Origin: Chlamydiia bacterium
GTDB lineage: Bacteria; Chlamydiota; Chlamydiia; Chlamydiales; Rhabdochlamydiaceae
Length of the DNA stretch: 64,000 bases
Direction: 5' to 3'
Assembly (NCBI GenBank): GCA_963804085.1
Contig: CAWDOQ010000019.1
Location: 224,001-288,000, forward strand
Shown: positions 11,089-29,006 of the stretch, piece by piece
Position numbering within the stretch: position 1 is the first letter of the stretch
Layout: every line of letters begins with the position of its first letter
Position numbers and translations under genes: made by a program
The notes under the pieces: generated by a model
What the model saw: the letters and a program-made list of their open reading frames with translations, nothing else
Told to the model about the DNA's origin: nothing
Databases searched by the model: none

Positions 11089-11119
11089 GTTTAGAGTGCG
11101 GCAGAGCCGCACTCTAAAC
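11089..11119. terminator. 14-bp perfect hairpin directly after the SWIB stop
   Basis: gtttagagtgcggc-aga-gccgcactctaaac; no clear U-tract. Confidence 0.5.
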
Positions 11120-11682
11120 CCCGTGCCTGTGCCCGTGTGCGTGCCCGTGCCCGATCTTCTCCCCTCTTACTCTGTGCTCTCTGGACTCGACTTTAGGAAA
11201 TTTTTAAGCAGTAACCATCAGGAGAATCAGCTTTTCTAATTAGCTCAAAAATTTCATAAACGCAGAGAAAAAAACGAGACACTAAAACGCTGAGAAATGC
11301 GAGGGACTTAAACAGAATGCATAGGAGCTCCAATCGTCCCTTTTGAACGAAGTTCAAACAGTAGAAGAACGAAATGTTTTTAAGAAAGCAAGGAAGCTAA
11401 TCACCGGCAAAAACCATTGAACTTCCTTGCTTTCTTAAAAACATTTCGTTCTTCTACTGTTTACTATGTAAAAGGGGCGATCTCAGCGTCTTAGTGTCTC
11501 GGGAGTCTCCTCTGCGTTTATGAAATTCGAAACCATGAATACTTCAGAGATGACAAGATAGGGCTTCGCGTTGCGTTTACTCTTCAATTTCTTAAAAAAA
11601 TCCTAAAGTCGAGGCTGTGCTCTCTAGAGAGCACAGCGTAGGAGAGAAAGAAGATCGGGCACGCACGCGGCACAGGCACGGG
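11120..11682. mobile_element. Three-layer nested palindromic element (REP-like outer arms, TIR-bounded middle layer, inner hairpin element)
   Basis: Outer arms cccgtgcctgtgcc/ggcacaggcacggg; middle TIR ctcgactttagga (11186-11198)/tcctaaagtcgag (11601-11613); inner element 11250-11534 with a perfect 41-bp stem. Confidence 0.8.
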
Positions 11683-11699
11683 CGCGAGGAAGACTGGGA

Positions 11700-12872
11700 T
11701 TACGACACATCCGGTAGTTTATCCACGTATCTTGCAAGAGAGATCCAAAGACGGTATTCGCGGTTGAGCGATTTTTTGACGTCTTTCAGTTGCAGCTTCA
11801 AGTTGTAAAGAGTGTCTTTTTTCTCCTCTTTATTCTTTTTAAGCGTGCTGTACTCTTCGCGCAGATCTTTTACTGCTTCGAGTTTAGCAAGCACGTTATC
11901 GATAACCGTGGTCACTTTTTGCTCCCACTCCTCTTTTTGTGCATGCAAAGAGGTCTGGATTTTTTCTAAGAGGAGAGCTTTGCGATCCAAAAGAAGCTTT
12001 TTCTCGATAAGGAAGGGGTGGACCCTTTTTAGCTGATGCGCAAGCTTGCACTTGTTGAGTACCCAGATGAGCCACTTGGTAGGATCGAAATGGTACCAGC
12101 GGATCCCATTGCGGTAATCGTAGGCAAATTTGTGATGGTAGTTGTGATACCCCTCTCCGAATGTCAGAAGTGAGATCATGTAGTTGTCGACTGCAGAGAG
12201 CTCTTGGCAAAAAGGGCGCGAGCCCCAAGTGTGAGCAAGAGAGTTGATGAACCAGGTGAAGTGGTGCAGAACGAACGTGCGTGCTACCCAAGCAAACAGG
12301 AAAGCGCCTAAGTAGTCATTGAGGCACCAGCCCACTACAAGAAATGCAGCAACGTTGGTCAGAAGCATCAGCAGTCCATAGAAGCGGTGCTGGAAGCGCA
12401 AAAGGGGCTTTCTAATAAGATCTGACACCACGCTATTTTCAATCGGTTTAGGTTTTTCAAAGAGCCAGAGGAAGTGGGCGTACCAGAACCCTTTTTTAAT
12501 CGAGTAGGGATCGCGATCGGTGTCGACAAAGGCGTGGTGGTGGCGATGGTCAAACGACCAGCGAATAGCGCTACCTTGTGTCGCCATCGTAGAAAATAAT
12601 AGCAGGATCGCTTCCACAACTGGATTTATTTTATAGGTCGTGTGGGAGTAGAGGCGGTGATAGCCTGCCGTGACGCTGAGGCCTGTCACGTACATAAGCA
12701 CAGACGAAATAAGAGCCAGTTTCCAAGTCAGGGTATAATGGAGGAAGTACCAGGGGAGTGCGACTAATAACAGTAGATGGTAACCGACGAGAAACGAACC
12801 TGGTCCCCAATTGAATTCTTTAATAAATTTTCTTATATTCAAAATATCCCTGCCTGTTTTAGTTCTGACCAT
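11700..12872 (-). CDS. Membrane fatty-acid (delta-9 acyl-CoA-type) desaturase
   Basis: His boxes HRLYSH, HRHHH and HNYHH; INSLAH; DPTKW. Confidence 0.92.
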   Translation of the reverse strand: MVRTKTGRDILNIRKFIKEFNWGPGSFLVGYHLLLLVALPWYFLHYTLTWKLALISSVLMYVTGLSVTAGYHRLYSHTTYKINPVVEAILLLFSTMATQGSAIRWSFDHRHHHAFVDTDRDPYSIKKGFWYAHFLWLFEKPKPIENSVVSDLIRKPLLRFQHRFYGLLMLLTNVAAFLVVGWCLNDYLGAFLFAWVARTFVLHHFTWFINSLAHTWGSRPFCQELSAVDNYMISLLTFGEGYHNYHHKFAYDYRNGIRWYHFDPTKWLIWVLNKCKLAHQLKRVHPFLIEKKLLLDRKALLLEKIQTSLHAQKEEWEQKVTTVIDNVLAKLEAVKDLREEYSTLKKNKEEKKDTLYNLKLQLKDVKKSLNREYRLWISLARYVDKLPDVS

Positions 12873-13073
12873 AAGTTTAAGGGTTATTGTCCTTTAATGA
12901 CTACCCTGGACTTAGGGGTGCCTTCCTCGTGCTTGCTGCGAAGACAGGCAAATGTGCCCGAATGGCACATTTGCCTGCAAAGCAGTAGAGAATGCCCCTG
13001 CCCGATCCGGATTAATTCGTGTACGTAAAGAATTATCCAATATATTCGCTGCCTTTTCAAGGTAGCGGGACAT

Positions 13074-14264
13074 TTAGGAAATCAGCTTATAGAGCCAGTT
13101 AAAGAGAGTCGTAGCCATTTGCGTGAGCGTCGCAAGCAAAGATGCTGTGTATGCATAGAGCTGCTCGAAAAAAGAGGGAGCAGGTGTAGCTGGCATAGGT
13201 GCTTCGACTGCTAGGGGCTTGGGACACTCCACGGACACAACAGGCGCAGTCGATGTAGCAATGGGGATTGCTTTAGGAGTTGGTGCGAGTACTACAAGAG
13301 GTAAAGCGTTTTGAATTATCTGATGATCTCGAATTGCAGGAATATTGCAGGTCTGTAGCTCTCTTGGAACAGCTTCGACAGACGCACCATAAAACGAGAT
13401 CGTTTTTAGTTTGGTCAATTTGCAAAGTGTGGAGGGGAGGGTGGTCAACTTAAGGTGGGCGAGGTTAAGGTATCCCAACTCGGCCAAGTCTCCTATAGTA
13501 TCAGGAAGAGAGGTAAGACTTGTCCCCCAGAGATCAAGCCTTTTGAGTTGAGTCAGGTTGTGAATAGAACAAGAGAGAGTGGTGAGTTGTCTGTTATTTG
13601 TCAGAAAGAGGTATTGGAGTTTAGGCAATTTGTAGATAAGGGCTGAGACATAGCAGAGTCTATTTTGAGTAAGATCTAATCGTAATAGACCTGAGAAAAA
13701 AGCAATTTCGTCTGGTACGAGGGTTAGTTCACAATTCCAAAAATTTAACTCAGTGATTTGGCTTAACATGTCTTTGTGCTGTTTCATCCAGGTGAGGATG
13801 GCTTCGGCCTTTGCACTGTCGTCACCTGCCAAACTATCCAAAAAGGTTTTAGCTTCGGGAATTTTCTCAGCAATGATCGTAAAGAGAATCACTAAATTCC
13901 TGGCTTTTTCTTTGGCTATCCAGCTGGAAAGTGGCGTAAGTTTTCTGGGATGGAGAGGAGAAGTTGTAGGCAAGTGTAGTGAGTCCAAATATTCGACTCC
14001 TCCACTGATCTCTCTTACATCCTGCATTACTCGGCGGCAAACCGCGTTTACACTTGTGGTAGGAGTGGGCAAAGCTTTAAAGCGCTCCACATAAGGCTTT
14101 AGAGACGGTTCGTGTGCATAAGCATTGAGAAATGCGAAATCAAAGTGGGGAGCGACCGTTTTTTGCCAGGTTTTGGAAACGTGCGCGAGAGACTCAGTTT
14201 CGTCTAAAAATCCTGCGACTACCGCGCTTAAATTTTTGTTTTGCAGTAAATTTGTAGCTGACAT
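13074..14264 (-). CDS. Leucine-rich-repeat protein with an F-box-like N-terminus (putative effector)
   Basis: LxxLxLxxNxL-type repeats (LLRLDLTQNRL, LQYLFLTNN, LKRLDLWGTSL); N-terminal GFLD..SLAHVSKTWQ; amphipathic C-terminus. Confidence 0.8.
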   Translation of the reverse strand: MSATNLLQNKNLSAVVAGFLDETESLAHVSKTWQKTVAPHFDFAFLNAYAHEPSLKPYVERFKALPTPTTSVNAVCRRVMQDVREISGGVEYLDSLHLPTTSPLHPRKLTPLSSWIAKEKARNLVILFTIIAEKIPEAKTFLDSLAGDDSAKAEAILTWMKQHKDMLSQITELNFWNCELTLVPDEIAFFSGLLRLDLTQNRLCYVSALIYKLPKLQYLFLTNNRQLTTLSCSIHNLTQLKRLDLWGTSLTSLPDTIGDLAELGYLNLAHLKLTTLPSTLCKLTKLKTISFYGASVEAVPRELQTCNIPAIRDHQIIQNALPLVVLAPTPKAIPIATSTAPVVSVECPKPLAVEAPMPATPAPSFFEQLYAYTASLLATLTQMATTLFNWLYKLIS

Positions 14265-14516
14265 TTCAATGCCTGGTTAATTAAAAAATGTGATAATTGT
14301 GCGTATTAATTGTTTTTTATTCAACATAAACACTTTTTAATTCGGTGTTTAAAGAAATATTTGTATTGTTGCGCCGACACTGTCGAGCTTAGGCAAATCA
14401 CCACGGGTCAAGATTTTCGGGCACGCGCACGTAAAGAATCGAGCATAGACGCTATTAATTTAAAGCATTGTATCTTGCCCTTTGTTACAGTAATGGACTT
14501 ACAAATTAAGAGGGTT

Positions 14517-15710
14517 ATGCAATTTAAAGATATCATTGACGACGAGAGAATTCTTCGGAATCTGGAAAAACTGGGCTTTTTGGAACCTACACCTATTCAA
14601 AAAGAAGCGATTCAACAAATTATGAAAGGGGGCGATCTGCGCGCTTCTGCACAGACAGGTACGGGTAAATCGGCAGCCTTTCTTCTTCCGGTGCTCATGC
14701 GTCTTGCTAAAGCAAAAGACAGACGCGGCCCGCGCGCTCTCATCTTAGTGCCTACACGCGAGCTGGCTATACAGTTAGCTGCAGAGGCTGCAAAACTCGG
14801 CAACTCTCTCAATTTGATCACTGTTTCTATTTATGGAGGAGTTCCCTATCCACCTCAATTCCGCCAGCTCTCCAAGCCTCATGATATTTTGATCGCAACT
14901 CCCGGACGTCTTATGGACCACATGGAGCAGAAGCGCATACAACTGGGTCAGATCGAGATGTTTGTTCTCGACGAAGCGGATCGCATGCTCGATATGGGCT
15001 TTATCAAGCCGGTTGAAGAGATAGCCTCCAAGATGCCTGCTTCCAAGCAGACGCTGATGTTCTCTGCAACTTTTGACAAAAATGTCCGCAAACTGTCGCT
15101 CACGCTTTTGAAAGATCCCTTTGAGATCACAAGCGAGACCACGCCGGCCAATCAGGCGAGAATTCAGCAAGAGTTCATCCGCACAGACGATTTAGCAGAA
15201 AAACAGCGCCGTTTAGAGGAGCTATTGACTCAACCCAATGTCGATCAAGTGATCGTCTTTTCTTCGACAAAAATCCAATCTGAGAAGATCGCGAAAAAAT
15301 TACGCGACGCGGGACTTCAGGCGGGAGCTCTACACGGCGATATGCACCAGCGCCAGAGAACACGTACCCTCGATGCTCTAAGATCTGGCAGGCTCCGTAT
15401 TCTCGTTGCAACAGATGTCGCAGGACGAGGCATCGACGTTCTAACCATCAGCCACGTGATCAATTTCGATCTTCCACGCAATGTAGAGGATTATATCCAT
15501 CGCATCGGCCGTACGGGCAGAGCGGGGAATACCGGCATGGCCTACTCCTTTTTCTCGAATAGAGATATCGCGGTTAAGAGGGAGATTGAAAAAAAGTTTG
15601 GAATGAAAACCAGCTCTGAACCTGCGCCTGCTGCTCCCCAAAAGAAGCACAAAAAGAAGCAGTTTTGGAAGCAGAAGCGTTCATTCCCACGTACATTCCG
15701 CAGGAATTAA
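14517..15710 (+). CDS. DEAD-box RNA helicase (RhlE-like)
   Basis: AQTGTGKS, PTRELA, TPGRL, DEAD, SAT, HRIGRTGR; start placed at ATG 14517. Confidence 0.95.
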   Translation: MQFKDIIDDERILRNLEKLGFLEPTPIQKEAIQQIMKGGDLRASAQTGTGKSAAFLLPVLMRLAKAKDRRGPRALILVPTRELAIQLAAEAAKLGNSLNLITVSIYGGVPYPPQFRQLSKPHDILIATPGRLMDHMEQKRIQLGQIEMFVLDEADRMLDMGFIKPVEEIASKMPASKQTLMFSATFDKNVRKLSLTLLKDPFEITSETTPANQARIQQEFIRTDDLAEKQRRLEELLTQPNVDQVIVFSSTKIQSEKIAKKLRDAGLQAGALHGDMHQRQRTRTLDALRSGRLRILVATDVAGRGIDVLTISHVINFDLPRNVEDYIHRIGRTGRAGNTGMAYSFFSNRDIAVKREIEKKFGMKTSSEPAPAAPQKKHKKKQFWKQKRSFPRTFRRN

Positions 15711-15803
15711 AAATAAGTTTATAGTTTTAAGGCTGTAGATTTTTAATACTATTTAATTGTATAATTTAACTTTTCTAAATTAACAATTAGCGGAGTGGAC
15801 CGG

Positions 15804-16958
15804 ATGTCTAGTATTAATTTTTTTACTCCTCTCGTCTATGGCGATCTACCTGTCTCTTGTACCCAAGCATTAGCCGAATATGCCGATGAGTACTTCTATT
15901 GGGGTGGGCAGCAAGCTGTTGTTCTAACAATTAGTGAGGGGAGCCAAGGCGTCCTCCTGCGCGAGGAAGAGACATCCTGCTGGCTCACGGCTGTAAAGGT
16001 GGTCACCTATTTCACACTTATTCTTCCCTTGATCGTGCTCATCGCCAAGGTGCTTTTGCGCTGCGGCTCATCATTCCATATCTACCGAGAGGCCTCCTTT
16101 GGAGAAGCTCTCTTAAATGGTCATCCTCAGCTTGCTAGACGCATAAAAAAAGAGGGTATTGTTTTATCAATGGAAGAGCGGCGTCTAGAAAGAGCCTATA
16201 ACAACGATTGCAACTTTGAACCTGCTGACTTTACCCTGCTGCCACAAGATCAGAAAGAGAAGATCTATCAGGTAGCCAACATCTATTTCTGCAAAGAGCT
16301 TGTTTTGAAACTAAACATCTGTGGCATGAGAAGAGCCCCTCTTGCTCCACGCGGACCTGCCATTCTCAGCTGCAACATGAATATGATCGAAGCGGAGAGT
16401 GCACTTCGCAAGCTTTTCACAGATCTACGCACGGCGGGCTGTTTGAATACCGAAGCGGAATTTCACGAAAGAGGCGACTATGCATTTTTTAACCAAAAAG
16501 TGGATATGGGCGCCCTTTTAGGAGCCGAGTATTTAGTGAGCAAAGCGATCGACCTTAACCTAAGATCTGTCAAGATACCCAAAAAGATCGCTGTGATCCT
16601 ACCGGACGAGACCAACACTATCGCGATCAGTGTGGCACGGGACTCTTTGGATATGCGCCTTCACTCGCCCGATCTTCAGATAGTGACAGAGCATATCCAC
16701 CCTCTTGCACGCGAAGAGACCGAGCAAGAGAGAGCGGAGATAGAGGCTCTAAAGAATGCGACTGGATACAGAGGTGCCACCTTCGTAGTAGGCCGCAATT
16801 CCCAAGGCGAAGAAGGGATCTTTTGCATGGACACCGGTTATGAAAACTTTGATCTTCCACCGGCTCCCGCCCACGCAGCTTCCGACTTTGCAAAGAGCGG
16901 CTTCGCAGCAAGAAGCGCACCTTTTCTATTCAAAGTCAGCGACTTCGTAAGCGCGTAA
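15804..16958 (+). CDS. Chlamydial DUF648-type N-terminal domain protein
   Basis: FFTP..Y...L.EYADEYFYWGG..AVV...WLTAVKV.TYFT.ILPLI.LIAK.LLR resembles the chlamydial DUF648 N-terminus. Confidence 0.65.
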   Translation: MSSINFFTPLVYGDLPVSCTQALAEYADEYFYWGGQQAVVLTISEGSQGVLLREEETSCWLTAVKVVTYFTLILPLIVLIAKVLLRCGSSFHIYREASFGEALLNGHPQLARRIKKEGIVLSMEERRLERAYNNDCNFEPADFTLLPQDQKEKIYQVANIYFCKELVLKLNICGMRRAPLAPRGPAILSCNMNMIEAESALRKLFTDLRTAGCLNTEAEFHERGDYAFFNQKVDMGALLGAEYLVSKAIDLNLRSVKIPKKIAVILPDETNTIAISVARDSLDMRLHSPDLQIVTEHIHPLAREETEQERAEIEALKNATGYRGATFVVGRNSQGEEGIFCMDTGYENFDLPPAPAHAASDFAKSGFAARSAPFLFKVSDFVSA

Positions 16959-16992
16959 GTTTTGTTTCTCAAAAAAATCTGAAGAAAGAATA

Positions 16993-17067
16993 TCAACGCA
17001 AAGTCGCGGAGACGCGAGAGGCAAATTTTTGCTTTGCGTCATTTGCGTCCCTGCGACTTTGCGTTGA
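16993..17067. repeat. Intergenic palindrome between convergent genes
   Basis: tcaacgcaaagtcgc (16993-17007) / gcgactttgcgttga (17053-17067), perfect 15 bp, plus inner gacgc/gcgtc units. Confidence 0.75.
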
Positions 17068-17081
17068 AAATCTTCGGAATG

Positions 17082-18104
17082 TCAACATTCAGCGGTAGCT
17101 TCTTGCGTAGCAAGAGCGTAGGCGCTGTCGTCCCAGGGGTGGTTTAAGATCATCTGGCGGATCTCATCTACCGATTTTGTGCGGTTGATCTTCTCGCGCA
17201 GCTCTCTTGCGCCTTTGATGTTACGCAAAAACCAGCATCCCACTCTGCGAAGGTCTAGTGCAGCCTTGTAGGGGTCTTTGTAAGAGGCGATATGTTCGAG
17301 ATGCTCTAAGAAGGTGTTTCTGCAGTCAAGACTAGTGTAGGTTAACGGTGGCTCTTTACCGAGGTGGCGGTAGATATCTTCGATCAGCCAGGGCTGTCCC
17401 ATCGTCCCGCGCGAAAGGAGTATGGCGTCGCATCCCGTGTAGGCAAAGATCCTTTCGGCACTCGCTGCGTCAAAGATATCGCCATTTCCGATGACCAGAA
17501 TCTTCTTTGCTGCCTGTTTGGCATCCCGGATGTAATCCCAGTTGGCAGGGCCGCGATACGCCTGCTCACGCGTTCTTCCATGCACGCAGATCGCGACTGC
17601 GCCAGCCTCTTCTGCAATGCGCGTCACCTCAGCCGCTACAATGCTATCCGTATCCCACCCTGCGCGGATCTTCACCGTGACAGGGATCTTAACGCATGCG
17701 ACCATGTTGGCGATCACTTCGCCTATCAGTTGAGGGTTTTTGAGCATGCCCGAGCCGCTGCCATCTTTGGTCACCTTATCAACAGGACACCCGCAGTTTA
17801 AGTCGAGCACATCAAAGCCCATATCTTCGACGATTTTGGCGCACTGTCCCGCATACTGAGGCTTACTGCCGCAGATCTGCGCGCCGATGGGCCGCATCGA
17901 AGGCTCATAGTCAAGAAGCTGGAAAGTTTTAGGATTGACGTGGAGCATCGCATCCATCTTCACCATCTCGCAATACATCAGCCCCGGACGGTACTTGGAT
18001 AGCATGCGGCGAAACGGAACATCGGAGCAGCCCGCAAGGGGAGCACAAAAGACGTTCGAAGGGAGCTCGCGGCTGCCTAAATAAAAAGGTTTTTTAAGTG
18101 TCAT
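17082..18104 (-). CDS. dusB: tRNA-dihydrouridine synthase B
   Basis: APLAG.SD.PFR, DLNCGCPV.KV, GSGML, VKIRAGWD, VHGRTR, GNGDI. Confidence 0.88.
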   Translation of the reverse strand: MTLKKPFYLGSRELPSNVFCAPLAGCSDVPFRRMLSKYRPGLMYCEMVKMDAMLHVNPKTFQLLDYEPSMRPIGAQICGSKPQYAGQCAKIVEDMGFDVLDLNCGCPVDKVTKDGSGSGMLKNPQLIGEVIANMVACVKIPVTVKIRAGWDTDSIVAAEVTRIAEEAGAVAICVHGRTREQAYRGPANWDYIRDAKQAAKKILVIGNGDIFDAASAERIFAYTGCDAILLSRGTMGQPWLIEDIYRHLGKEPPLTYTSLDCRNTFLEHLEHIASYKDPYKAALDLRRVGCWFLRNIKGARELREKINRTKSVDEIRQMILNHPWDDSAYALATQEATAEC

Positions 18105-18204
18105 GTTTATCTAATCTCTTCGAATAGAGTAACATGATCCCGTGTTCTCAAAAAATGGAAAAAGGTCCATTTATCCAATTCAATGAAATAACGTAAGAGG
18201 TCTT

Positions 18205-18351
18205 ATGGAGATCCATCCCTTAGTTAACCCTGTAGCATCCCTTGTAGCCGGAATCATAGTTCTAATATTTCCAGCGATCTTGAACTATGTTGTGGCCTTC
18301 TATCTCATTTTGGTGGGATTGATCGGGATGTTCGGTACGACTGCGATGTAA
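18205..18351 (+). CDS. Small membrane protein, DUF3096-like (48 aa; absent from the ORF track)
   Basis: Manual translation MEIHPLVNPVASLVAGIIVLIFPAILNYVVAFYLILVGLIGMFGTTAM*; AAGAGG RBS; terminator follows. Confidence 0.8.
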   Translation: MEIHPLVNPVASLVAGIIVLIFPAILNYVVAFYLILVGLIGMFGTTAM

Positions 18352-18355
18352 ACAA

Positions 18356-18383
18356 AAAGAGCGAACCGAATGGTTCGCTCTTT
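18356..18383. terminator. Bidirectional rho-independent terminator
   Basis: aaagagcgaacc-gaat-ggttcgctcttt between convergent genes. Confidence 0.75.
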
Positions 18384-18404
18384 AAAGATAAGATTATCAG
18401 AGGC

Positions 18405-18717
18405 TTAGTAATTGCTAGAGTATCTGAAAACAGCAACATCAGGAGAGAACTGTGTGTTGTCTGCGAAGTCCATAGCTTTCTTTTTCTGCTCTGAAGAGAG
18501 TTGTCCCCACTCATGTAACCCAAAACGGCTAAGATCAGCTTTAAATGTCTCTTCGTTATAATGATCAGTCTTCTTCTTTAGAAAATCAGTTTCGCTTGTG
18601 CTTTTCCAAAGAGGTTGACCATAATCGTTTTTATGAGTCTTCTTGTGCATGGCTCCAGCCCAAAGCCAGTAGGGCCCCGGCGAGCAGATATCCGAACTTT
18701 CCCCGAACGTTTTTCAT
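18405..18717 (-). CDS. Small exported hypothetical protein, split by an apparent frameshift
   Basis: AGGAG RBS then MKNVRGKFGYLLAGALLALGWSHAQEDS* (signal peptide), continuing in another frame as the 18405..18650 ORF. Confidence 0.5.
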
Positions 18718-18818
18718 ACATATCTCCTAGTTTTAAGTGAGTGATCACTTTAAGGCCACCTTATGATTAAAAAAAATATTTGTCAATATCCCACGTTTTT
18801 TTTCTCTGGAGGAAGTTG

Positions 18819-19205
18819 ATGAAACAGTTTAAAATGTCTCGTAAAATGGATGGAAATGAACCTATGTACGGAATGACCTTTTCTACTGCTTTATTAACAG
18901 CTTTTGTTCCTTGTAAGGCTAATGCTGAAATCAGAAAAGCAGAGAAAGAAAACAGACCCGATTTAGTAGAGGACTTGCGCGATTCAGGGCCCTCGCGTGC
19001 TGCTTTTTACAGCTGTGTGGCACTGGCGGTGATTGGGGGTTTAGGTACAGCGTACGCAGGGCCTATAGCTCTACAAGCTTTAGGGCGCTTCTCTTTGACC
19101 TGTGGGTTAGGCTTTGGAGTTATAGCCGCCCGCAGGCTCTATAACTACGCACTTTGTATTCAACTTGAAGCCAACCGCGCCCCTGATCAACAATTCGACG
19201 GTTAG
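18819..19205 (+). CDS. Hypothetical protein with a bilobed hydrophobic segment (Inc-like topology)
   Basis: Two adjacent hydrophobic helices; GGAGG upstream of ATG 18819. Confidence 0.5.
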   Translation: MKQFKMSRKMDGNEPMYGMTFSTALLTAFVPCKANAEIRKAEKENRPDLVEDLRDSGPSRAAFYSCVALAVIGGLGTAYAGPIALQALGRFSLTCGLGFGVIAARRLYNYALCIQLEANRAPDQQFDG

Positions 19206-19978
19206 GATCCCCTAATGTTTTGAAGGAGCACATCATCGGGGTCCAAATTCCGAATGGCACGTCTTTCAATAGGCTGAGCGACGCCTTTTTCCCAGTACTG
19301 GGTTAGCGTTAGAATATTCCAGCAATGAAAGGTGCCCTTGCCCTCAGCGGCCCGATTCGTTGGATCTTCTATGGCACCGCGCATCTGCATTTTCACAACG
19401 TCACCTCGCGAAAAGTCGATATAGTTTTCTGCACCTTCGACGAACTTTTGCTTGGCAATGTCTATGAATATATCAAACGCCGGTTGATAAGTTTCCTCGA
19501 TGGCTTTAGCTTGCTCTCCCTCAAATGTGGCGATTGTCTGCTTTCCGAAGGACTCACAATGGAAAATTTCATCTTGTTCATTCCCTTTAACGTGACACTC
19601 CAAAGTTATCTCTAGGTGAAAACTGGAAAATGAGGCGGTCTTGCGCATCTCCTCGATCATGGTTTTGATAGGACCATTTTCTGAGCGCCAAGAAGGAAAC
19701 TCATCTTTCATCTGCTTAAGCGGGTCTTTGAGCAGTTCAGCATTAACAGGGGTATAGACCCAGCTGAGAACCCAACTGAAAATGCCAGACACACAGCCCC
19801 AGATCGAGCATGCTAAACTTTGCAGGCAGGCGAGAACACCCTCTGATGACTCTTTTGCTGCTGTGTCGATCCTGTCGACGATAGGCTTCGTAGCAGCTGG
19901 CTTTTCCGCATATTTTCCAACAGCTGGCAATCCTGCGTCTGTTGCTTTGGGGCTGGCGGGTGTTAGTGGCGTTGACAT
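19202..19978 (-). CDS. Tandem paralog family, copy 1 (N-type 1, C-type A)
   Basis: MSTPLTPASPKATDAGLP...LACLQSLACSIWGC; YIDFSRGD. Confidence 0.8.
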   Translation of the reverse strand: MSTPLTPASPKATDAGLPAVGKYAEKPAATKPIVDRIDTAAKESSEGVLACLQSLACSIWGCVSGIFSWVLSWVYTPVNAELLKDPLKQMKDEFPSWRSENGPIKTMIEEMRKTASFSSFHLEITLECHVKGNEQDEIFHCESFGKQTIATFEGEQAKAIEETYQPAFDIFIDIAKQKFVEGAENYIDFSRGDVVKMQMRGAIEDPTNRAAEGKGTFHCWNILTLTQYWEKGVAQPIERRAIRNLDPDDVLLQNIRGS

Positions 19979-19987
19979 GATTACTCC

Positions 19988-20771: not shown

Positions 20772-20802
20772 GATTACTCCTCACCTGTTGTGCTATGTGT
20801 TG

Positions 20803-21573
20803 TCATATCGTGGGTAACATATTTTACTTATGTGGGGCGATTCATTCCATTCCGAAGCATCCCAAGCATTTACGAACCTTTGATGGATTGCGATCGTCTT
20901 GATTTTGCGTCCCTCGCCATCCTCAATAGGAATGGACAATTCTGCTCTGATCTCTATGCTTACATCATCATCCCAATCAAGATCTACATACAGCTTCTTG
21001 TTCTTAAGATCGGCTTCTGCATTTTCTAAAGTTTTAACAACCAGCTCATCCGTGAGCTTTTTACTGCGGCGGGGTCAGCCAGGTGGGCGACCCGGTATGA
21101 ATAGGCTCTGGGTGCTGCCTGCAGAAGCTCCCGCTTGAGTAAGAAGACTCTTTTTTAAACGCTGTAAAATGAAACGATAATTTAACTACTGCATCCTGCG
21201 AACCTTTACGCACCTCGTTGACCAGCTTTGTCATAGGGCCCTTCGAGTCTTTCCAGATTGCTAGATCCGCATCGATCTGTTTTAAAGGATTGGCAAGGAG
21301 CTCTGGGTTGTCGCGAGCGGAACTAAACAGGTTAGCAACCCGTCCAAAAAAGTCTGATACGCAGCTCCAGATCGAACAGGCAAAGTTCTGCACACAAGAG
21401 AGAATGCCGGACGATTCTGCTGTGCTATCTGAGTGGAATGCGTAGGGAATTGTATCGTCAATTGTGTCGGCAGCACGTTGACGGGCTGTTCGCGGTACTT
21501 CGTACTCTTTTTGAACGGCGGGCAATCTCGCGTCGGCGGCTTTGGGGCTAGTGGGTGTTACTGGTGTTGACAT
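20803..21573 (-). CDS. Tandem paralog family, copy 3 (N-type 2, C-type B; frameshifted)
   Basis: MSTPVTPTSPKAADARLP...; C-terminal part (LYVDLDWDD) lies in another frame. Confidence 0.65.
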
Positions 21574-21606
21574 AATTATTCCTTCTTAATTTTAGTTGCT
21601 CTACTA

Positions 21607-22335
21607 CTAACCTTTGTATTTGTATAGGGTGGGCTTGCTGTCTGGAGTGTCTTTGTCAAATGTTTGAGAGATCCTAATGCGATCGATCTTGCGCTTAGAT
21701 CCAGGAGACTCGACAACAGGCGTCGCTAATTTCACTGTGAGTTCTACCTCCACCATGTCCTCGCGATCCAGATCTATGTATAATTTCTGGTATTTGAGTA
21801 CTGCTTCTATACCATCACGCAGCAGCTGACCAATGAATTGGTCTGTAAATTTTTTAAGTGCGGCAGAATCGTTCAGTTTGCTGATATCGTAAGAATAAGG
21901 GGGAAAGTTTGTATCAAAGAAGCTTTCGGCTAATTCGTCCCATGCGTGAAAGTAAAATGTGAATTCAACCGTTGTTTCCGTTGAACATCTACGCACCTCG
22001 TCGAGTAGCTGTGTCATCGGGCCCGTTGGATCTTGCCAGGCTTTTAATCCGACTGCGATATGTTTGAGAGGATTGGCTAGGAGCTCAGCATTGTCACGTG
22101 CGCCAGGACCAAAGAAGGATCTGATCCATGTGAAGAGGCCGGTAAAACAGCTCCAAACTGAGCATGCCAAACTTTGGAGGCAGGCGAGAACACCTTCTGA
22201 TGAGCCTTTTGCTCCAGCATCGATCGTATCGACGGCAGGTTTTGTCGCAGCTGGCGTTTCAGCATACTTTCTTTCAGCGCCTGGTAATCCCGCATCGGCG
22301 GCTTTAGGGCTAGTGGGTGCTAGTGGCGTTGACAT
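21607..22335 (-). CDS. Tandem paralog family, copy 4 (N-type 1, C-type B)
   Basis: MSTPLAPTSPKAADAGLPGAERKYAETP...; YIDLDRED. Confidence 0.8.
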   Translation of the reverse strand: MSTPLAPTSPKAADAGLPGAERKYAETPAATKPAVDTIDAGAKGSSEGVLACLQSLACSVWSCFTGLFTWIRSFFGPGARDNAELLANPLKHIAVGLKAWQDPTGPMTQLLDEVRRCSTETTVEFTFYFHAWDELAESFFDTNFPPYSYDISKLNDSAALKKFTDQFIGQLLRDGIEAVLKYQKLYIDLDREDMVEVELTVKLATPVVESPGSKRKIDRIRISQTFDKDTPDSKPTLYKYKG

Positions 22336-22371
22336 GATTACTCCTTAATTTTAGGTGTCTGCGTTTTTCAA

Positions 22372-23070
22372 TCAGGTAGATACATCTATGTCAATAGGCT
22401 GAGCTTTGCCGTCTATCCAATATTGTGTTAGCTCGACACGCTTCTTCTCGGTTGCATCGTTTAATGTTCCTTGCATCTGCATTTTCACAATGTCGCCTCG
22501 CGAAAAGTCGATATAATTTTCTGCTTCTTCGAACTTTTTTTGGACAGCTTTTACGAAACGCTCAAATTCGGGCTTAAAAACATCCCTTACATCCTCCAAT
22601 TGACGCCCCGTGAATGTGCCGATGACCTTTGTTGTGCCGAAAGAGTGGTGATAAGCAATTTGATTCGTCTCATCCCCATGAATATGGCATTCCAAAGAGA
22701 TCTTGAGTCCAAAAGTAGAGAATGGGTTAGCCTTGCGCATCTCTTCTATCATGGTTTTGATAGGACCATTGTGTAAGCTCCAAAAGAAAACCTGATCTAT
22801 CTGTTTAAGAGGATCTTTGAGCAGTTCAGGATTAGGAGGGTTGTACACAAAACTGATTGCCCATGTGAAGAAGCCGGCTAAGCAGCTCCAAACTGAGCAT
22901 GCTAAACTTTGCAGGCAGGCGAGAACGCCTTCTGATGAGCCTTTTGCTCCAGCATCGATCGTATCGACGGCAGGTTTTGTCGCAGCTGGCGTTTCAGCAT
23001 ACTTTCTTTCAGCGCCTGGTAATCCCGCATCGGCGGCTTTAGGGCTAGTGGGTGTTAGTGGCGTTGACAT
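22372..23070 (-). CDS. Tandem paralog family, copy 5 (N-type 1, C-type A)
   Basis: 5' ~200 nt almost identical to copy 4, while the C-terminus resembles copy 1 (NGPIKTMIEEMRK, YIDFSRGD). Confidence 0.8.
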   Translation of the reverse strand: MSTPLTPTSPKAADAGLPGAERKYAETPAATKPAVDTIDAGAKGSSEGVLACLQSLACSVWSCLAGFFTWAISFVYNPPNPELLKDPLKQIDQVFFWSLHNGPIKTMIEEMRKANPFSTFGLKISLECHIHGDETNQIAYHHSFGTTKVIGTFTGRQLEDVRDVFKPEFERFVKAVQKKFEEAENYIDFSRGDIVKMQMQGTLNDATEKKRVELTQYWIDGKAQPIDIDVST

Positions 23071-23072
23071 GA

Positions 23073-23848
23073 TTACTCCTTATCGTTGAAGTTGCCTTGC
23101 AAATACGTGTTTAGGCGGGGCTGACTGCCTGGGTTTTCTATTTCAAATGTTTGATAAATGTCAATTTGGTTGATCTCGCGGGTAGGGTTAAAAGCATAAG
23201 GATCAGAAGGCACGGTAACGGGTGTGGCTAATTTAACACGGAGAAAAATATTTGCCTGGTCTTCGCGATCCAGATCTATGTATAATTTCTCGCTTTTAAG
23301 TTTATGCGCTGCAGATTGCAGTAGTGTGCCAATGAATTCGCCTGTGAATTTCCTTAGCTCCTTTGGGTCGTTCAATGTGCGGATATCCTTAGAAACAGGG
23401 CCGCACACCTCATAAAGAAAATATTGCCAACTTGCAGAGGATACCTTTTCGCTTGCAGAAAAGATAAACTGGAATTCCACCGTTGTTACTGTTGAATATT
23501 TACGCAGCTCGTTAAGTAGCTGTGTCATAGGGCCTTTAGGATTTTCCCAAGCCTCTAGACCGGCAGCGATATGTTTTGTAGGGTTAGCGAGAAGTTCAGC
23601 ATTATCGCGTGGAGCCGGACCAAAAGAGGGATCCGATCCATGAGAAGAAGCCGGCTAAGCAGCTCCAAACTGAGCATGCTAAACTTTGCAGGCAGGCGAG
23701 AACGCCTTCTGATGAGCCTTTTGCTCCAGCATCGATCGTATCGACAGCAGGTTTTGTCCGCAGCTGGCGTTTCAGCATACTTTCTTTCAGCGCCCGGTAA
23801 TTCCGCGTTGGCGGCTTTAGGGCTAATGGGTGTTACGGCTCCTGACAT
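23073..23848 (-). CDS. Tandem paralog family, copy 6 (N-type 1, C-type B; frameshifted)
   Basis: ORF pieces 23555..23848 and 23073..23528 join into a family member. Confidence 0.7.
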
Positions 23849-23936
23849 AATTCCTCCATTTTAAAAAGGACATTATATCCCATTATGTATTAAAATAGGT
23901 TGCATAAAATTATTTTTGATTTAAAGTATTTATTTT

Positions 23937-24614
23937 ATGGAAAAGCTTATCAAAGGAATAGTTGAATTTAGAAAAAGCCTTACCGAAGAGCGCAGAACGC
24001 TCTTTGCGGAGCTTGCGCTTGGACAGAAGCCGGATACGCTTTTTATTGGCTGTTCGGATAGTCGCGTGGTGCCCAATCTTTTTGCCTCTACCGACCCGGG
24101 GGATCTCTTTGTGGTCCGCAATATTGGCAATCTAGTTCCTCCCGTCGCCTCTGCATCGAAGGAGGATTGCGTCCCTGCCGCGCTCGAATTTGCGCTCGTT
24201 TCGTTAAATGTTTCGGACATTGTGGTCTGCGGCCATTCTGAGTGCGGCGCGATGCTTGCGCTCGCACAAGGTATAGACACGCTGGAGTGTCCGCATCTCA
24301 AGTCCTGGTTAAAGTATGCAGAAGAGGCAGCGCGTAAGGTTAAAAAAGGGGTAGTTCTAGATCCTTCGCTTTCCGTGCATAACCAGATCTCGCAGATCAA
24401 CGTGCTGCAGCAGATGCAGCATATCTTAAGTTACCCCTCTGTGCGCGAACGGCTAAGAAAAGGGGAGTTGCGCATACACGGCTGGTGGTTTGACATTGCA
24501 AACGCAGATGTCTACTGCTACGAGGAGAGCGTAAAGAAGTTTGTGCTCATCGATGAGAATGAAGCGAAGCTGATGCTTGAACGTTGTTCAGAACAGACTC
24601 ACCCATGTTGCTAA
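23937..24614 (+). CDS. Beta-class carbonic anhydrase
   Basis: CSDSR, LFVVRNIGN, HSECGA zinc ligands. Confidence 0.93.
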   Translation: MEKLIKGIVEFRKSLTEERRTLFAELALGQKPDTLFIGCSDSRVVPNLFASTDPGDLFVVRNIGNLVPPVASASKEDCVPAALEFALVSLNVSDIVVCGHSECGAMLALAQGIDTLECPHLKSWLKYAEEAARKVKKGVVLDPSLSVHNQISQINVLQQMQHILSYPSVRERLRKGELRIHGWWFDIANADVYCYEESVKKFVLIDENEAKLMLERCSEQTHPCC

Positions 24615-25203
24615 GCCAAAGGCTATGATGATCAAGCCGGCGATCCGGTTGATCCAGGCCATGACATTCTTGCTCACGCTCTTGCGAAAGAAGGTGACGC
24701 CCTCGCTTAAGATAAACCACCAGAATGATGATCCCAAAAAGACCCCAAAAACAAGCCAAGAAGAGTCCCAATAATCGTTGCTGACGTTAGATAAGCCAAC
24801 AGCAGCAAATATAGCGATATAGGAGAGGACGGTCATGGGATTGGTCAGCGTGAGAAAAAATGTCGAGGCGAAGTCTTTAGAAAGAGACAGGTGTGAAACA
24901 TTCGTATCCCTCTGCTTTGGGCTTTCTCAGAAGGGTCTTTATCCCCAAGTAGATCAAAAAGATGCCGCCGAATAGCCTTAGCCAAAATTGGCCGGCGAGT
25001 AGAAGGTCTGATATCAGGGTAAGCCCAAACGCTGCCACAACGCCATAAAGCGTGTCGGCAAGAGCCGCTCCCAGCCCCGATACAAAGCCTGAGAACCTGC
25101 CAAACTCCAGCGTCCTGCGGATGCAGAGGATCCCGATCGGACCCACCGGTGCTGCTACTGCAAAGCCTATGATCAACCCTTTTGCAAGAAAACTCATTTC
25201 CAT
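24588..25203 (-). CDS. LysE/RhtB family translocator (frameshifted)
   Basis: GFAVAAPVGPIG...GLGAALAD in one frame; TLTNPMT..SY...GVFLGS..WW in another. Confidence 0.8.
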
Positions 25204-25288
25204 AGTTATCTACACCTTTTTCTCTAAAAAGCCATTGACGCGCAAGTAAAAAGGCTGTAAGAACCAAAAATAGGACAAGGAGGAATTT

Positions 25289-25798
25289 ATGAAGGACTTT
25301 TACGATCTATTTACTCATGAGCTCAAGGATATCTATAGCGCAGAGACGCAGCTAGAGAGGCTGCTTCCTGAGTTTGCAAGAGCGGCGACTACTCCAAAAC
25401 TCAAAGAGGCGTTCTCTTACTATCACAAAGAGATCCCCCAGCAAATTGCAAGACTAGAAGAGATTGCCCAAGACCTCAATATCGACCTAAAAGGCCATAC
25501 CTGCGAAGCGATGAAGGTCTTTTTAAACGAAGCGCTTAAAATCATGCGCACTGACTATCCTGCAGAGGTGCGCGACGCCGCTCTCATCAGCTCTATGCAA
25601 AGAATCAAGCACTACGAGATCGCTCTCTATGGGACTTTAAAAGCCTTTGCAAGGAATTTAGGTTTTAAAGATGCAGAACGGCTCTTAAGCCTAAACTCCA
25701 AAGAAGAGGGGCAAGCTGATCAGAAATTAACGGCTATTGCAACTGGCGGCACCTTTACCAAGGGCATCAACGTCAAGGCAATGCGCAAATCCGCTTAA
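25289..25798 (+). CDS. Ferritin-like YciE/YciF (DUF892) protein
   Basis: LKDIYSAE.QL, C.AM, RDAALI...Q...HYEIA.YGTL. Confidence 0.88.
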   Translation: MKDFYDLFTHELKDIYSAETQLERLLPEFARAATTPKLKEAFSYYHKEIPQQIARLEEIAQDLNIDLKGHTCEAMKVFLNEALKIMRTDYPAEVRDAALISSMQRIKHYEIALYGTLKAFARNLGFKDAERLLSLNSKEEGQADQKLTAIATGGTFTKGINVKAMRKSA

Positions 25799-25919
25799 TC
25801 TTCCATAAGTCGCTATAAACCAGCGACTTATATTTTAATTGAAATAATATTACATATGTGATACAATTCTTTTTAATTTATCTTAAAAACGTTAATTAAT
25901 AAACAATAAGGAGTTTAAC

Positions 25920-26354
25920 ATGTCTGGTTTAACAATTTTAATAAATGGTAAAGCAGTTCCTGAATTTGATATTGCAAAGGAGCCACAGAACACGCCTTGG
26001 CATGCTCACACACGAATGGGGCGGAACGTCATCCTATCCCGCCCGCCTGCTAAAAATGGTTCCAATCAAAATGCATCACCAGTTGATGCAACAGCAAATG
26101 CTGTGGCGCAAAAGGTGATTAAAGACGAAGACAACAATAACAAACCAAGTATGAAAGTTGAGGCCGATTCAGAAGAACTTCCAGATAACACGTCTTCTGA
26201 AGCACAGCCCACGAGAAAAGGGAAAGCGGGACGGTTCTCTTTTTCTGGTATGCATCTTATAAGATCGCAAGGCATCACAGATGGGCGGATCGCAGTAAAA
26301 CTCAGAAACGCTGAAAAAGCCGAGCTCGATGCGCTGCTCTATGACCCAGACTAA
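25920..26354 (+). CDS. Hypothetical low-complexity protein
   Basis: AAGGAG RBS, 144-aa ORF, terminator follows. Confidence 0.6.
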   Translation: MSGLTILINGKAVPEFDIAKEPQNTPWHAHTRMGRNVILSRPPAKNGSNQNASPVDATANAVAQKVIKDEDNNNKPSMKVEADSEELPDNTSSEAQPTRKGKAGRFSFSGMHLIRSQGITDGRIAVKLRNAEKAELDALLYDPD

Positions 26355-26375
26355 ACCTATCTCAATTGACCCGTA

Positions 26376-26409
26376 AAAAAAGGAGAGGTGCACGCACCTC
26401 TCCTTTTTT
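26376..26409. terminator. Bidirectional rho-independent terminator
   Basis: aaaaaaggagaggtgc-ac-gcacctctcctttttt. Confidence 0.8.
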
Positions 26410-26719
26410 ATTGGACGCGCTCGAATCTAGGGCGCAATTGGCCCTTAATCGTGATCTCTTCTAGAAACATCGCAAGCGGACGCACCCACACATCGCCCTC
26501 TCCATAGAGGGCTTGGTAGATGACGAGCTCTTCGAGTGTCTCGCTATGGCGTCCTACTCCCAAAATCTTGTAGCGCATTCCCTTGTAGTGCTCGTACAGC
26601 GAGCCTACTTCGATCGATTTTGCAAGCGGTGAAAAGGCGGTTAAAACTTCTTGGTTCATGGCTGTTGCCTCCAGATTGAAGCAGATTGCGATAGCAGCTA
26701 TTAAAATTGCTCTGATCAT
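26408..26719 (-). CDS. DUF1653 domain protein
   Basis: YEHYKG..Y..LGVGRHSET.EELVIYQALYG..WVRP..MF. Confidence 0.88.
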   Translation of the reverse strand: MIRAILIAAIAICFNLEATAMNQEVLTAFSPLAKSIEVGSLYEHYKGMRYKILGVGRHSETLEELVIYQALYGEGDVWVRPLAMFLEEITIKGQLRPRFERVQ

Positions 26720-26780
26720 GCAAGCGATTGTAAACAGCCTTCCTTAAATTTGCAAATTTTGCATACTGTTGCATAAATAG

Positions 26781-27035
26781 CTCTGTACGGACAAAAATTT
26801 GGAAGGCAAAGAGTTAAAACAAGATGAGGGAGACAAGTCAAGAGAAGAGCAAGAGTTAAAACAGGATGGGCAGGATAAGCAGGATAAGAAAGAAAAAGAG
26901 TTGAAAACAGGGTTCTTTCTTTATCCTGCTGATCCTGTCTATCCTGTTCTAAATTCTTCTTCTTTCTTTTCTTCATCCTGCTGATCCTGCCCATCCTGTA
27001 AAAATTCTTCTGCATTAATTTTTGTCCACATAGAG
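26781..27035. mobile_element. MITE-like element with imperfect TIRs and a 9-bp target-site duplication
   Basis: TIR ctctgtacggacaaaaatt / aatttttgtccacatagag; direct repeat cataaatag at 26772-26780 and 27036-27044; internal caggat...atcctg 9-nt-period palindromic units. Confidence 0.8.
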
Positions 27036-27063
27036 CATAAATAGCCTGAAAACGGAGAAAAAC

Positions 27064-27687
27064 ATGAAAAAGCTAGTTGCTGCAGCGCTCGCTGCTATAT
27101 TTGCGGTTATGCCGCTTTCTGCTGAGATCAAGGTTTTGGCCTTTTCGGGCAGCACGCGCAAAGATTCTTACAATCAACAGCTGGTCAAGGATGCTGCAGA
27201 AATGGCGCGCCAGATGGGAGCAACTGTTACGGTTGTTAGCTTAAAAGATTATCCAATGCCATTTTATGATGCGGATCTGGAAGCAAAAGAGAAGATGCCC
27301 AAGAATGCGAAAAAATTTCGCATTCTGATGATGCAAAGCGATGCGATCATCATCGCTTCTCCCGAGTATAATGGCTCCCTTCCTGCCGTTCTGAAAAATA
27401 CGCTGGACTGGGCTTCTAGAAGCGAAGAGGGAGGCTCTTCGCTGGATGCATTTAAGGGCAAGCGGTTTGCCATAATGAGCGCCTCTCCCGGCAAAGGCGG
27501 GGGAGCAAGAGCTCTTGTGCATTTGCGCAGCATACTCGAAGGTGTGGGTGGAGTTGTTGTCTCAAAGCAGGTATCGATTCCTCAAGCGCATGAGTATTTT
27601 GCTCAAAAAGAGCGTCCTGAGAATGCACAGCTAAAACAAGAGGTCGCAGAGCTTTTACAAATCAAAGCCGGAAGCGTTAAAAAATGA
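27064..27687 (+). CDS. NAD(P)H-dependent FMN reductase with a signal-like N-terminus
   Basis: GSTRKDSYN, ASPEYNGS.P.VLKN.LDW.SR, SASPG..GG. Confidence 0.9.
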   Translation: MKKLVAAALAAIFAVMPLSAEIKVLAFSGSTRKDSYNQQLVKDAAEMARQMGATVTVVSLKDYPMPFYDADLEAKEKMPKNAKKFRILMMQSDAIIIASPEYNGSLPAVLKNTLDWASRSEEGGSSLDAFKGKRFAIMSASPGKGGGARALVHLRSILEGVGGVVVSKQVSIPQAHEYFAQKERPENAQLKQEVAELLQIKAGSVKK

Positions 27688-28640
27688 AACAACTGGTCAA
27701 GGGGCTTCACCACATCACTGCTTTAGCATCAGATCCGCAAAAGAATTGCGACTTTTACGCAGGTGTTTTGGGTCTGCGTATGGTCAAAAAGACGGTGAAC
27801 TATGATGCGCCGGAGGTCTACCATCTTTATTACGGAAACGAGAGGGGAGAACCTGGAACGATCCTCACTTTTTTTCCCTATCCCGGCATGCCAAAAGGGA
27901 GGAAGGGGAAGGGGCAATTGACTGTGACCTCCTTTTCTGCTCCTGCAAATGCTCTAGATTATTGGATGAAGCGGCTTGCAAAGTTCCGCGTCAAGCACGA
28001 GGCGCCCGAAAAGCGTTTTGAAGATGAGCTCGTACTTTATCTCGAAGATACAGATGGGTTGGGGCTAGAACTTGTGTTTAATAAAAGAGATGCAAGGCCT
28101 GGTTTTTCCTACGGAAACATTCCGCTAGAATTTGCCCTCAAAGGGTTTTATGGGATGGCTCTTTCCGAAGAGGGGTATGAGAAAACAGCAGGGCTATTGA
28201 CAACGCAGATGGACCACAAGCTCATTTTAGAGAAGGGGAATCGCTTTCGTTATTCTGCCAGTGGCAAGCCGGGCGACTTTGTCGACGTTCTATGTTCTCC
28301 CGAGATGCTCCCGGGAAGAGAGGGTGCTGGGACTGTGCACCATGTTGCTTTTGCAACTGCAACTGAAGTTTCACAGATAGAAGCGCGAGAGAAGCTTGTT
28401 AAAATGGGGTTGAATGTGACGCCCATCATCGACAGGCAGTACTTCCACTCGATCTATTTTAGAGAGCCGGGTGGTGTGCTGTTTGAGATTGCGACGCTTC
28501 CGCCGGGTTTTACTATCGACGAGCCTCTTGAGCACCTTGGAGAGACGCTTAAGCTGCCTGCTTGGGAGGAGCCCAATCGAAAGGCGCTAGAAGCAGGGCT
28601 CCTGCCCGTTCGATTGGACACTCGCAAATTCGCAGATTAA
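27684..28640 (+). CDS. Ring-cleaving dioxygenase (MhqO-like, VOC family)
   Basis: GLHHIT, KKTVNYD...YHLYYG, GTVHHVAF, DRQYFHSIYFREPGG.LFEIAT. Confidence 0.92.
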   Translation: MKQLVKGLHHITALASDPQKNCDFYAGVLGLRMVKKTVNYDAPEVYHLYYGNERGEPGTILTFFPYPGMPKGRKGKGQLTVTSFSAPANALDYWMKRLAKFRVKHEAPEKRFEDELVLYLEDTDGLGLELVFNKRDARPGFSYGNIPLEFALKGFYGMALSEEGYEKTAGLLTTQMDHKLILEKGNRFRYSASGKPGDFVDVLCSPEMLPGREGAGTVHHVAFATATEVSQIEAREKLVKMGLNVTPIIDRQYFHSIYFREPGGVLFEIATLPPGFTIDEPLEHLGETLKLPAWEEPNRKALEAGLLPVRLDTRKFAD

Positions 28641-28663
28641 TCCAAACTAAAGCCTATATCTTC

Positions 28664-28959
28664 AAGGTTTCGAATTTCATAAACGCAGAGGAACCGTCTG
28701 AGACACTAAGACGCTGAGATCGTCCCTTTTACATAGTAACCAGCAGAAGAAGGAAATGTTTTCAAGAAAGCAAGGAAGCCAATCACCTCTGCAAACTATT
28801 GAACTTCCTTGCTTTCTTGAAAACATTTCCTTCTTCTGCTGGTTGAACTCCGTTCAAAAGGGACGATTGGGCTTCTACGCACTCTGTTCAACTCCGGCAG
28901 ATTTCTCAGCGTCTTAGTGTCTCGGGTTTTTTCTCGGTGCTTATAAAATTCGAAACCTT
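28664..28959. mobile_element. Palindromic element, second copy of the 11250-11534 family
   Basis: Ends aaggtttcgaattt/aaattcgaaacctt; perfect 41-bp stem 28738-28778/28804-28844 around a 25-nt loop. Confidence 0.88.
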
Positions 28960-29006
28960 TACCTGCGAGACGGATATGCTGATTTTTTTGCGTCTGCGTT
29001 GAATTC

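Follow-up and report, generated by a model that had tools for sequence, protein, structure and literature searches.

A MITE-like repeat family in a chlamydial genome whose inner palindrome probably evolves by arm-to-arm copying, with occasional loop inversion

Why should two copies of a long hairpin repeat in a bacterial chromosome differ in their inner stems only by changes that are mirrored on the opposite arm, and why should the loop enclosed by one of these stems run backwards relative to the rest of its element? The question is raised by a 64-kb stretch of a genome from the family Rhabdochlamydiaceae (the window; G000:C19:224001-288000, where G000 is the label of the source genome and C-numbers are its contigs), which contains two copies of such a repeat, copy 1 and copy 2. 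The genome comprises 2.13 Mb in 24 contigs, is 91% complete and has ~47% G+C. In our assessment the repeat is probably a non-autonomous transposable element resembling a miniature inverted-repeat transposable element (MITE), the inner palindrome of which evolves by copying of one arm from the other, with loop inversion as a by-product. The parts of the two copies are as follows (window coordinates).

11250..11534, + strand: element copy 1, ~285 bp, loop orientation 'A'
11250..11295, + strand: copy 1 left terminal inverted repeat, with helices 11250-11267 and 11275-11295 (partners 11510-11527 and 11481-11501)
11296..11332, + strand: copy 1 segment present in the left arm only (~36 nt), the asymmetry by which the element is oriented
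11356..11396, + strand: copy 1 inner stem, 5′ arm, 41 bp, perfect
11397..11421, + strand: copy 1 loop, 25 nt
11422..11462, + strand: copy 1 inner stem, 3′ arm, 41 nt, 100% complementary to the 5′ arm
11481..11527, + strand: copy 1 right terminal inverted repeat, located by repeat finding
28664..28959, - strand: element copy 2, in reverse orientation, loop 'B' (flipped relative to the element)
28738..28778, no strand assigned: copy 2 inner stem, one arm of a perfect 41-bp stem
28779..28803, no strand assigned: copy 2 loop, 25 nt
28804..28844, no strand assigned: copy 2 inner stem, other arm of the perfect 41-bp stem

Repeat finding reproduced to the base what the preliminary description of this DNA had reported, namely two copies at these positions with perfect 41-bp stems and 25-nt loops, and direct comparison of the stem sequences confirmed that they differ at four positions, every difference having its counterpart on the facing arm. 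Chance cannot account for a perfect inverted repeat of 41 bp in a sequence of 64 kb. The terminal helices of copy 1 comprise 18 nt that are 100% and 21 nt that are 95% complementary, and the outer inverted repeat of copy 2 spans 56 nt at 82%. In a three-way alignment copy 2, once reverse-complemented, matches copy 1 from end to end, the left-only segment included, with the sole exception of the loop, for which a match to the copy 1 loop requires the + strand of copy 2. The copy 2 loop thus runs opposite to the remainder of its element, and the earlier claim that copy 2 is the reverse complement of copy 1 while both loops read in the same direction on the + strand is upheld.

The whole element folds into one long rod, both as DNA (-92.8 kcal/mol, z = -17.9 relative to shuffled sequences) and as RNA (-163 kcal/mol, z = -18.4). 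No open reading frame (ORF) of at least 60 amino acids is contained entirely within copy 1 or copy 2. A Pfam scan of the 59 window ORFs detected no transposase or recombinase family, so the earlier statement that the window lacks a transposase holds for this set. The neighbours of copy 1 encode a SWIB-domain protein and leucine-rich repeat (LRR) proteins.

A genome-wide BLAST search in which loop orientation and arm covariation were scored, as the preliminary description had proposed, raised the number of copies from two to 12 and recovered both loop orientations and a mostly compensated inner stem. The 12 loci lie on six contigs, 11 being full-length and one, at C10:226867, decayed; element size ranges from 276 to 296 bp, and the terminal inverted repeats (~46 bp) are kept in 11/11 full copies. 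All 12 are intergenic, five between convergent, six between co-directional and one between divergent genes. Six copies, copy 1 among them, form a young subfamily with 93-98% identity, and in five of these six the common sequence extends beyond the element ends. An apparent tendency of copies to lie in pairs, at distances of 10-17 kb, was discarded as not significant (three such pairs seen versus ~1.25 expected by chance, by our own estimate).

When the asymmetric outer parts are used to orient every copy, eight of the 12 carry the loop in orientation 'A' and four in orientation 'B', the latter being the following.

C19:252666 (window copy 2): 'B' copy, oriented by the outer arms
C19:158773: 'B' copy, oriented by the outer arms
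C16:30452: 'B' copy, oriented by the outer arms
C23:105474: 'B' copy, oriented by the outer arms

The clearest case is C16:30452, a member of the young subfamily, in which the loop is the exact reverse complement of the copy 1 loop (25/25); the central 51-mers of the two copies are identical on the + strand although the elements occupy opposite strands. On a tree constructed without the loop, 'B' requires about three changes, one of them nested inside an otherwise A-only subfamily. Flipping is recurrent but occasional, and does not amount to a 50:50 switch. We claim flips within this genome only: between genera, the forward and reverse scores of the loop are similar, and the loop of the related genome G005 resembles a mosaic of both. 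A switch of the site-specific invertase type finds no support here, given a spacer of only 25 nt and the lack of any recombinase family among the scanned window ORFs.

The second line of evidence comes from the stems, which are perfect over 39-43 bp in 10 of the 12 copies. Using an alignment of 11 copies and a nested-helix structure, we compared the inner 41-bp helix with the three outer helices. Both sides of the pair have changed in 12 of the 15 varying pairs of the inner helix, as against two of the 17 in outer helices 1-3 (Fisher p = 2e-4). Paired cells make up 99.1% of the inner helix and 93.5-99.2% of the individual outer helices; G.T cells number 1/449 in the inner and 16/548 in the outer helices, and other mismatches 4/449 and 21/548, respectively. 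Transversions that exchange the two bases of a pair (C-G to G-C, T-A to A-T), for which no wobble intermediate is possible, are frequent in the inner stem. The same pattern is seen among the six young copies, where the inner stem displays two private compensated changes and no uncompensated ones, and the outer arms none compensated and six uncompensated. Pairs vary at a similar frequency in the inner stem (15/41) and the outer arms (17/50). Since the inner stem is as variable as the outer arms, it is complementarity that is kept, and not the sequence itself. Two mirrored 1-nt indels were also observed in the inner stem, both within T/A runs.

Complementarity that is perfect at the DNA level only in the innermost palindrome, the double transversions and exact inversion of the spacer are together what template switching during replication predicts, and we infer that such switching best explains the combination of homogenised arms and flipped loops. 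An element with ~46-bp terminal inverted repeats, an asymmetric left arm and a 41-bp palindrome around a ~25-nt spacer would have spread to the 12 intergenic sites, presumably mobilised in trans by a transposase, and the flips would then have happened in place. Following a mutation in one arm, the other arm would be recopied from the mutated one during replication, by a template switch within the hairpin or an equivalent conversion between the arms, and the stem would stay perfect in the DNA. The arms read the same on both strands of the repeat and the spacer reads in opposite senses, so that a nascent strand switching in one arm and returning in the other would leave the spacer inverted, while a shorter excursion would recopy one arm from the other with no inversion. 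The outcome would be a population of 'flip' and 'flop' copies. Ordinary reciprocal recombination of duplex DNA does not offer a ready route to the same result, a 25-nt spacer being too short for it. The footprint of template switching, i.e. clustered compensatory changes together with a loop replaced by its reverse complement, is present in this family; in a study of RNA hairpins, template-switch mutations are reported to invert loops and to introduce compensatory changes at several bases (Monttinen and Loytynoja 2022, PMC8794818).

The preliminary description had proposed a dispersed non-autonomous hairpin family with arms homogenised and the loop flipped by template switching or cruciform resolution. 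The family and the template switching are carried forward here. Its further suggestion of an undescribed system was overstated, as the repeat is built like a MITE and a flip of this kind belongs to a known type of mutation.

The element was found in six of the 129 same-family genomes searched, with diverged relatives of the same architecture in G005, G086, G010, G024 and G140. Those in G005, G010, G024 and G140 have in common the terminal repeats and the segment confined to the left arm, together with a small side hairpin, a long stem and a loop of ~26-30 nt. G005 and G086 also contain many short forms of 119-160 bp that consist of the terminal repeats alone, and the same terminal repeats surround different palindromic cargo in G024 (C17, L175:1500-1905) and G086 (L174, L177, L180). 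In the G086 copies L174, L177 and L182 the flanks are inverted repeats of each other, which would place the element at the centre of another palindromic repeat, similar to the nesting of copy 1 described below. We obtained no sequence match to the element among annotated records of plasmid and phage collections, and neither of two element motifs gave a match in the Joint Genome Institute (JGI) metagenome contigs. A loose palindromic pattern was run against a genome collection; the matches listed were chance palindromes, and no fetched locus among them resembles the element by BLAST. Two candidates, the Chlamydiales match L113 and the G054 match L116, were set aside as short unrelated hairpins.

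Several points weigh against template switching in a MITE-like element, or at least qualify it. Conversion between two copies paired in inverted register via their palindromic arms could equally produce a flip, and selection for the hairpin, as RNA or in cis for transposition, may contribute. The loop orientation at each locus is that of the assembly. The mirrored indels in the T/A runs could be symmetric homopolymer errors of long-read assembly, and our argument gives them no weight. In G005 all five full copies have the same loop orientation and three of the five stems are imperfect, which implies that the process is occasional rather than universal. No target-site duplication is demonstrable, the true ends are blurred and copies are nested in other palindromic repeats. 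Finally, the assembly, at its 91% completeness, contains no autonomous partner with the same ends, and the terminal repeats match nothing beyond the 12 copies.

Regarding assembly errors, the window itself offers a possible instance. The frame of the cytochrome oxidase subunit I gene at window 31227-33184 is broken: the COX1-like translation shifts frame at ~31800 and stops again near 32350. Either a pseudogene or assembly indel errors would account for this, and the frameshift fits homopolymer indel errors of long reads.

Regarding the autonomous partner, the genome has two insertion sequence (IS) families, with DDE_Tnp_1 and rve transposases, and the ends of both are unlike those of the element. 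A search for a DDE_3/IS630-type transposase gave no match in the five genomes searched. The DDE_Tnp_1 family (1,187 bp) is represented by two 100% identical copies at C14:2840-4026 and C19:209439-210625, and the rve family (1,473 bp) by another two 100% identical copies at C2:235731-237203 and C2:297867-299339. The identity of these IS copies points to recent activity and to long-read assembly.

We then consider the sites into which the element has inserted. Copy 1 is the core of a larger composite that itself sits in a GC-rich hairpin, and a related strain lacks both window copies.

11165..11646, + strand: composite repeat of ~480 bp, a shell around copy 1 that is bounded by separate inverted ends of ~45 bp
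11120..11163, no strand assigned: GC-rich host hairpin, left arm, with the composite inserted into the hairpin top
11649..11690, no strand assigned: GC-rich host hairpin, right arm, delimited by repeat finding and the related strain
28650..28994, no strand assigned: empty site for copy 2 in the strain of run X1 (contig joint 28649->28995, side 255 nt; exact junction uncertain)

The composite is common, in whole or in part, to four other loci (C16:30372-30819, C16:106486-106913, C16:42328-42690 and C10:192259-192629). Insertion polymorphism was examined by comparing k=31 contigs from four soil-metagenome runs with window 10600-29400. The strain in run X1 is collinear with the window, with ~93-95% identity (mostly 90-99%). 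Its contigs join position 11153 directly to 11647, skipping 11154-11646 (side 24 nt), with 18 other letters between the hairpin arms and an uncertain exact junction. As the X1 contigs skip both regions, both window copies are insertions without a counterpart in that strain. Removal of 11165-11646 from the window gives back a hairpin as long as that in X1. Neither empty-site junction displays a direct repeat, the ends being blurred by nesting in other repeats and the junction evidence thin. Target duplications and exact ends were also sought in G000, G005 and G086, where the flanks are themselves repeated palindromes. The LRR-protein gene at 13074-14264, beside copy 1, is affected by a separate difference between the strains: window 12913-14450 is replaced by 46 other letters in the X1 strain.

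The GC-rich hairpin into which the copy 1 composite is inserted belongs to a short motif of repeated 6-8-nt GC-rich units that is dispersed over the genome. Its window sites are 11113-11163 and 11645-11690, further sites are at C19:326808, C19:335440, C19:343628, C2:15051, C2:209483 and C7:7174, and a similar motif flanks the genome's only Y1 transposase unit, described below.

This nesting suggests an alternative in which palindromes are assembled like Russian dolls. Elements would insert specifically into single-stranded hairpin tops and move as folded single strands, and the perfect inner stem and the loop flip would reflect hairpin-templated resynthesis during movement instead of ordinary replication slippage. 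The order of nesting would run from host hairpin to outer shell, 285-bp element and inner palindrome, possibly with the terminal-repeat-flanked Y1 transposase acting in trans. We consider this scheme unlikely.

A related reading, for which we see little probability, couples the flip to transposition itself: the element would pass through a single-stranded fold-back intermediate, the second arm would be resynthesised at each move, and the loop would be left in random orientation. It is favoured by the stem differences, each of which is confined to one copy and mirrored without exception, and by palindromes nested in palindromes and insertions at hairpin tops. However, no flip affects the outer arms or the asymmetric junctions beside the stem, and neither shows homogenisation. 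Fold-back copying of the whole element is excluded by the behaviour of the outer arms. Loops in random orientation are also not what is seen in G005, with one orientation in 5/5 copies. We know of no such fold-back mechanism for elements with terminal inverted repeats.

Equally improbable, in our judgement, is that the family is a selected structured RNA (a small RNA, an RNase III site or a terminator-like 3′ element), with the stem kept by compensatory evolution. Downstream position is the rule, 11 of the 12 copies lying downstream of at least one gene; the predicted fold is very stable, and the stem architecture is kept across genera. Against this, G.U pairs, which compensatory evolution of an RNA could pass through, occupy only 1/449 inner-stem cells and many of the changes are double transversions, while a flipped loop alters the loop sequence of the RNA. 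The six copies between co-directional genes split 3/3 in orientation relative to transcription. No Rfam 15 family reaches its gathering score, with zero matches in the whole window, and no terminator-like or promoter-like sites were found.

The preliminary description had also raised a link to repetitive extragenic palindromic (REP) sequences, their hairpin-forming doublets (REPINs) and HUH (histidine-hydrophobic-histidine) transposases. Here the hairpin repeats would be single-stranded DNA substrates of the genome's HUH Y1 transposase, which resembles a REP-associated tyrosine transposase (RAYT), and would flip during hairpin processing. An intact Y1_Tnp gene does exist (C17:57812-58260, a 167-amino-acid frame with an HUH-like motif), Y1 genes are also found in the element-bearing genomes G005 and G024, and the copy 1 composite sits at the apex of a host hairpin with no detectable duplication. 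But the inverted repeats on either side of the Y1 gene (~100 bp) come from another family and have only 10-nt chance matches to the element. Y1 is present in 45/129 same-family genomes as against six with the element, so that co-occurrence is uninformative, and G010 has the element and no Y1 match. The element itself is present in only 12 copies and is bounded by long terminal inverted repeats; its ends lack a conserved GTAG/CGTC tag, and the GTAG within the stem differs from copy to copy. We judge this reading very unlikely, and the proposed REPIN/HUH-like link is not borne out, the sole Y1 gene being bracketed by unrelated repeats. The suggested search for an HUH/Y1 or DDE transposase with the element's ends thus returned a Y1 gene and two IS families that all have unrelated flanks or ends.

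The Y1 unit (C17:57640-58420) is 'TIRtron'-like, lies beside an apparent tRNA gene and contains the sole RAYT-like Y1 gene of the genome. Further copies of the repeat family that flanks it are located at C19:164317-166500, C2:164211-164494 and C16:88771-90428.

The least credible reading, and a highly improbable one, is that misassembly of a perfect palindrome created the flipped loops: k-mers of 41 or shorter cannot orient the loop of a 41-bp perfect inverted repeat, the public k=31 contigs break at the stem and the assembly may carry indel errors, but k of at least 43, or a read across flank, stem and first loop base, does orient the loop, exact IS repeats of 1,187 bp and 1,473 bp are resolved inside contigs without Ns, implying long reads, and of the four 'B' copies three are unique in sequence and diverged, two of them sisters on the tree.

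Template switching in a MITE-like element also places the family among known systems. Similar to prokaryotic MITEs such as the Correia repeat-enclosed elements of Neisseria, it is small, non-coding and intergenic, is bounded by terminal inverted repeats and occurs in dispersed copies with subfamilies and strain insertion polymorphism; a long hairpin fold and an invertible sequence between inverted repeats are further common traits. Inversion of Correia elements has been described (Elbeyioglu et al. 2017, as cited in the review PMC10969869). Unlike in the Correia case, it is only the 25-nt spacer of an internal perfect palindrome that inverts here, and not the whole element, and unlike for a typical MITE, no parent IS or target duplication was identified for this element. 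The available parts of the same MITE review make no mention of Chlamyd-, hairpin or template switch, and a limited literature search gave no published account of MITEs in Chlamydiae or of loop flips in bacterial MITEs.

The hairpins of PMC8794818 resemble the inner palindrome in their simultaneous compensatory changes, maintained perfect stems and full loop inversion. Their loops are 'typically four-nucleotides long', and the cases reported there lie in ribosomal RNA and microRNA genes (PMC8794818). The present case differs from the hairpins described there in its 25-nt loop between 41-bp arms, in its location within a mobile repeat, in the availability of paralogous replicates and in the internal control provided by the outer arms.

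REP sequences are defined in PMC3733652 as short palindromes (20-40 bp) that occur in high copy number and end in a conserved GTAG/CGTC tag. Like the REP/REPIN-RAYT and TIRtron systems covered in that article, our family consists of palindromic extragenic repeats in a genome with an inverted-repeat-flanked Y1 transposase. Unlike REPs and REPINs, the element is far longer (~285 bp) and occurs in few copies, and the flanks of the transposase belong to a different family.

Recurrent inversion of short spacers is familiar from other replicons. In chloroplast non-coding DNA, short spacers between inverted repeats invert recurrently and independently, creating homoplasy, a behaviour known as 'flip-flop'; the resemblance to our loops is close, but the chloroplast cases are single-copy organelle loci and the present one is a bacterial transposable repeat. 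The flip/flop isomers of parvoviruses, including adeno-associated virus (AAV), are generated when terminal hairpins are transferred on a linear single-stranded replicon that has a Rep nickase. These viruses likewise display two orientations of a palindrome-enclosed sequence. Unlike them, the chlamydial element is chromosomal and internal, and only its innermost spacer flips.

The family adds a new MITE-like mobile repeat to the environmental chlamydiae, the underlying mutational process being already known, and amounts to a natural experiment on the evolution of long palindromes in a bacterial chromosome, with paralogues as replicates and outer arms as internal control. Exact inversion of a 25-nt loop between near-identical copies is an unusually clean template-switch footprint. 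Perfect hairpin covariation is usually taken as proof of a functional RNA; here it can come from DNA-level arm copying alone.

Two other features of the window deserve a mention. Six consecutive minus-strand ORFs (151-258 amino acids) at window 19202-23528 match no Pfam family at E <= 1e-5. At window 52361-53898 there is a pair of genes for an AbiEi antitoxin and an AbiEii nucleotidyltransferase toxin.

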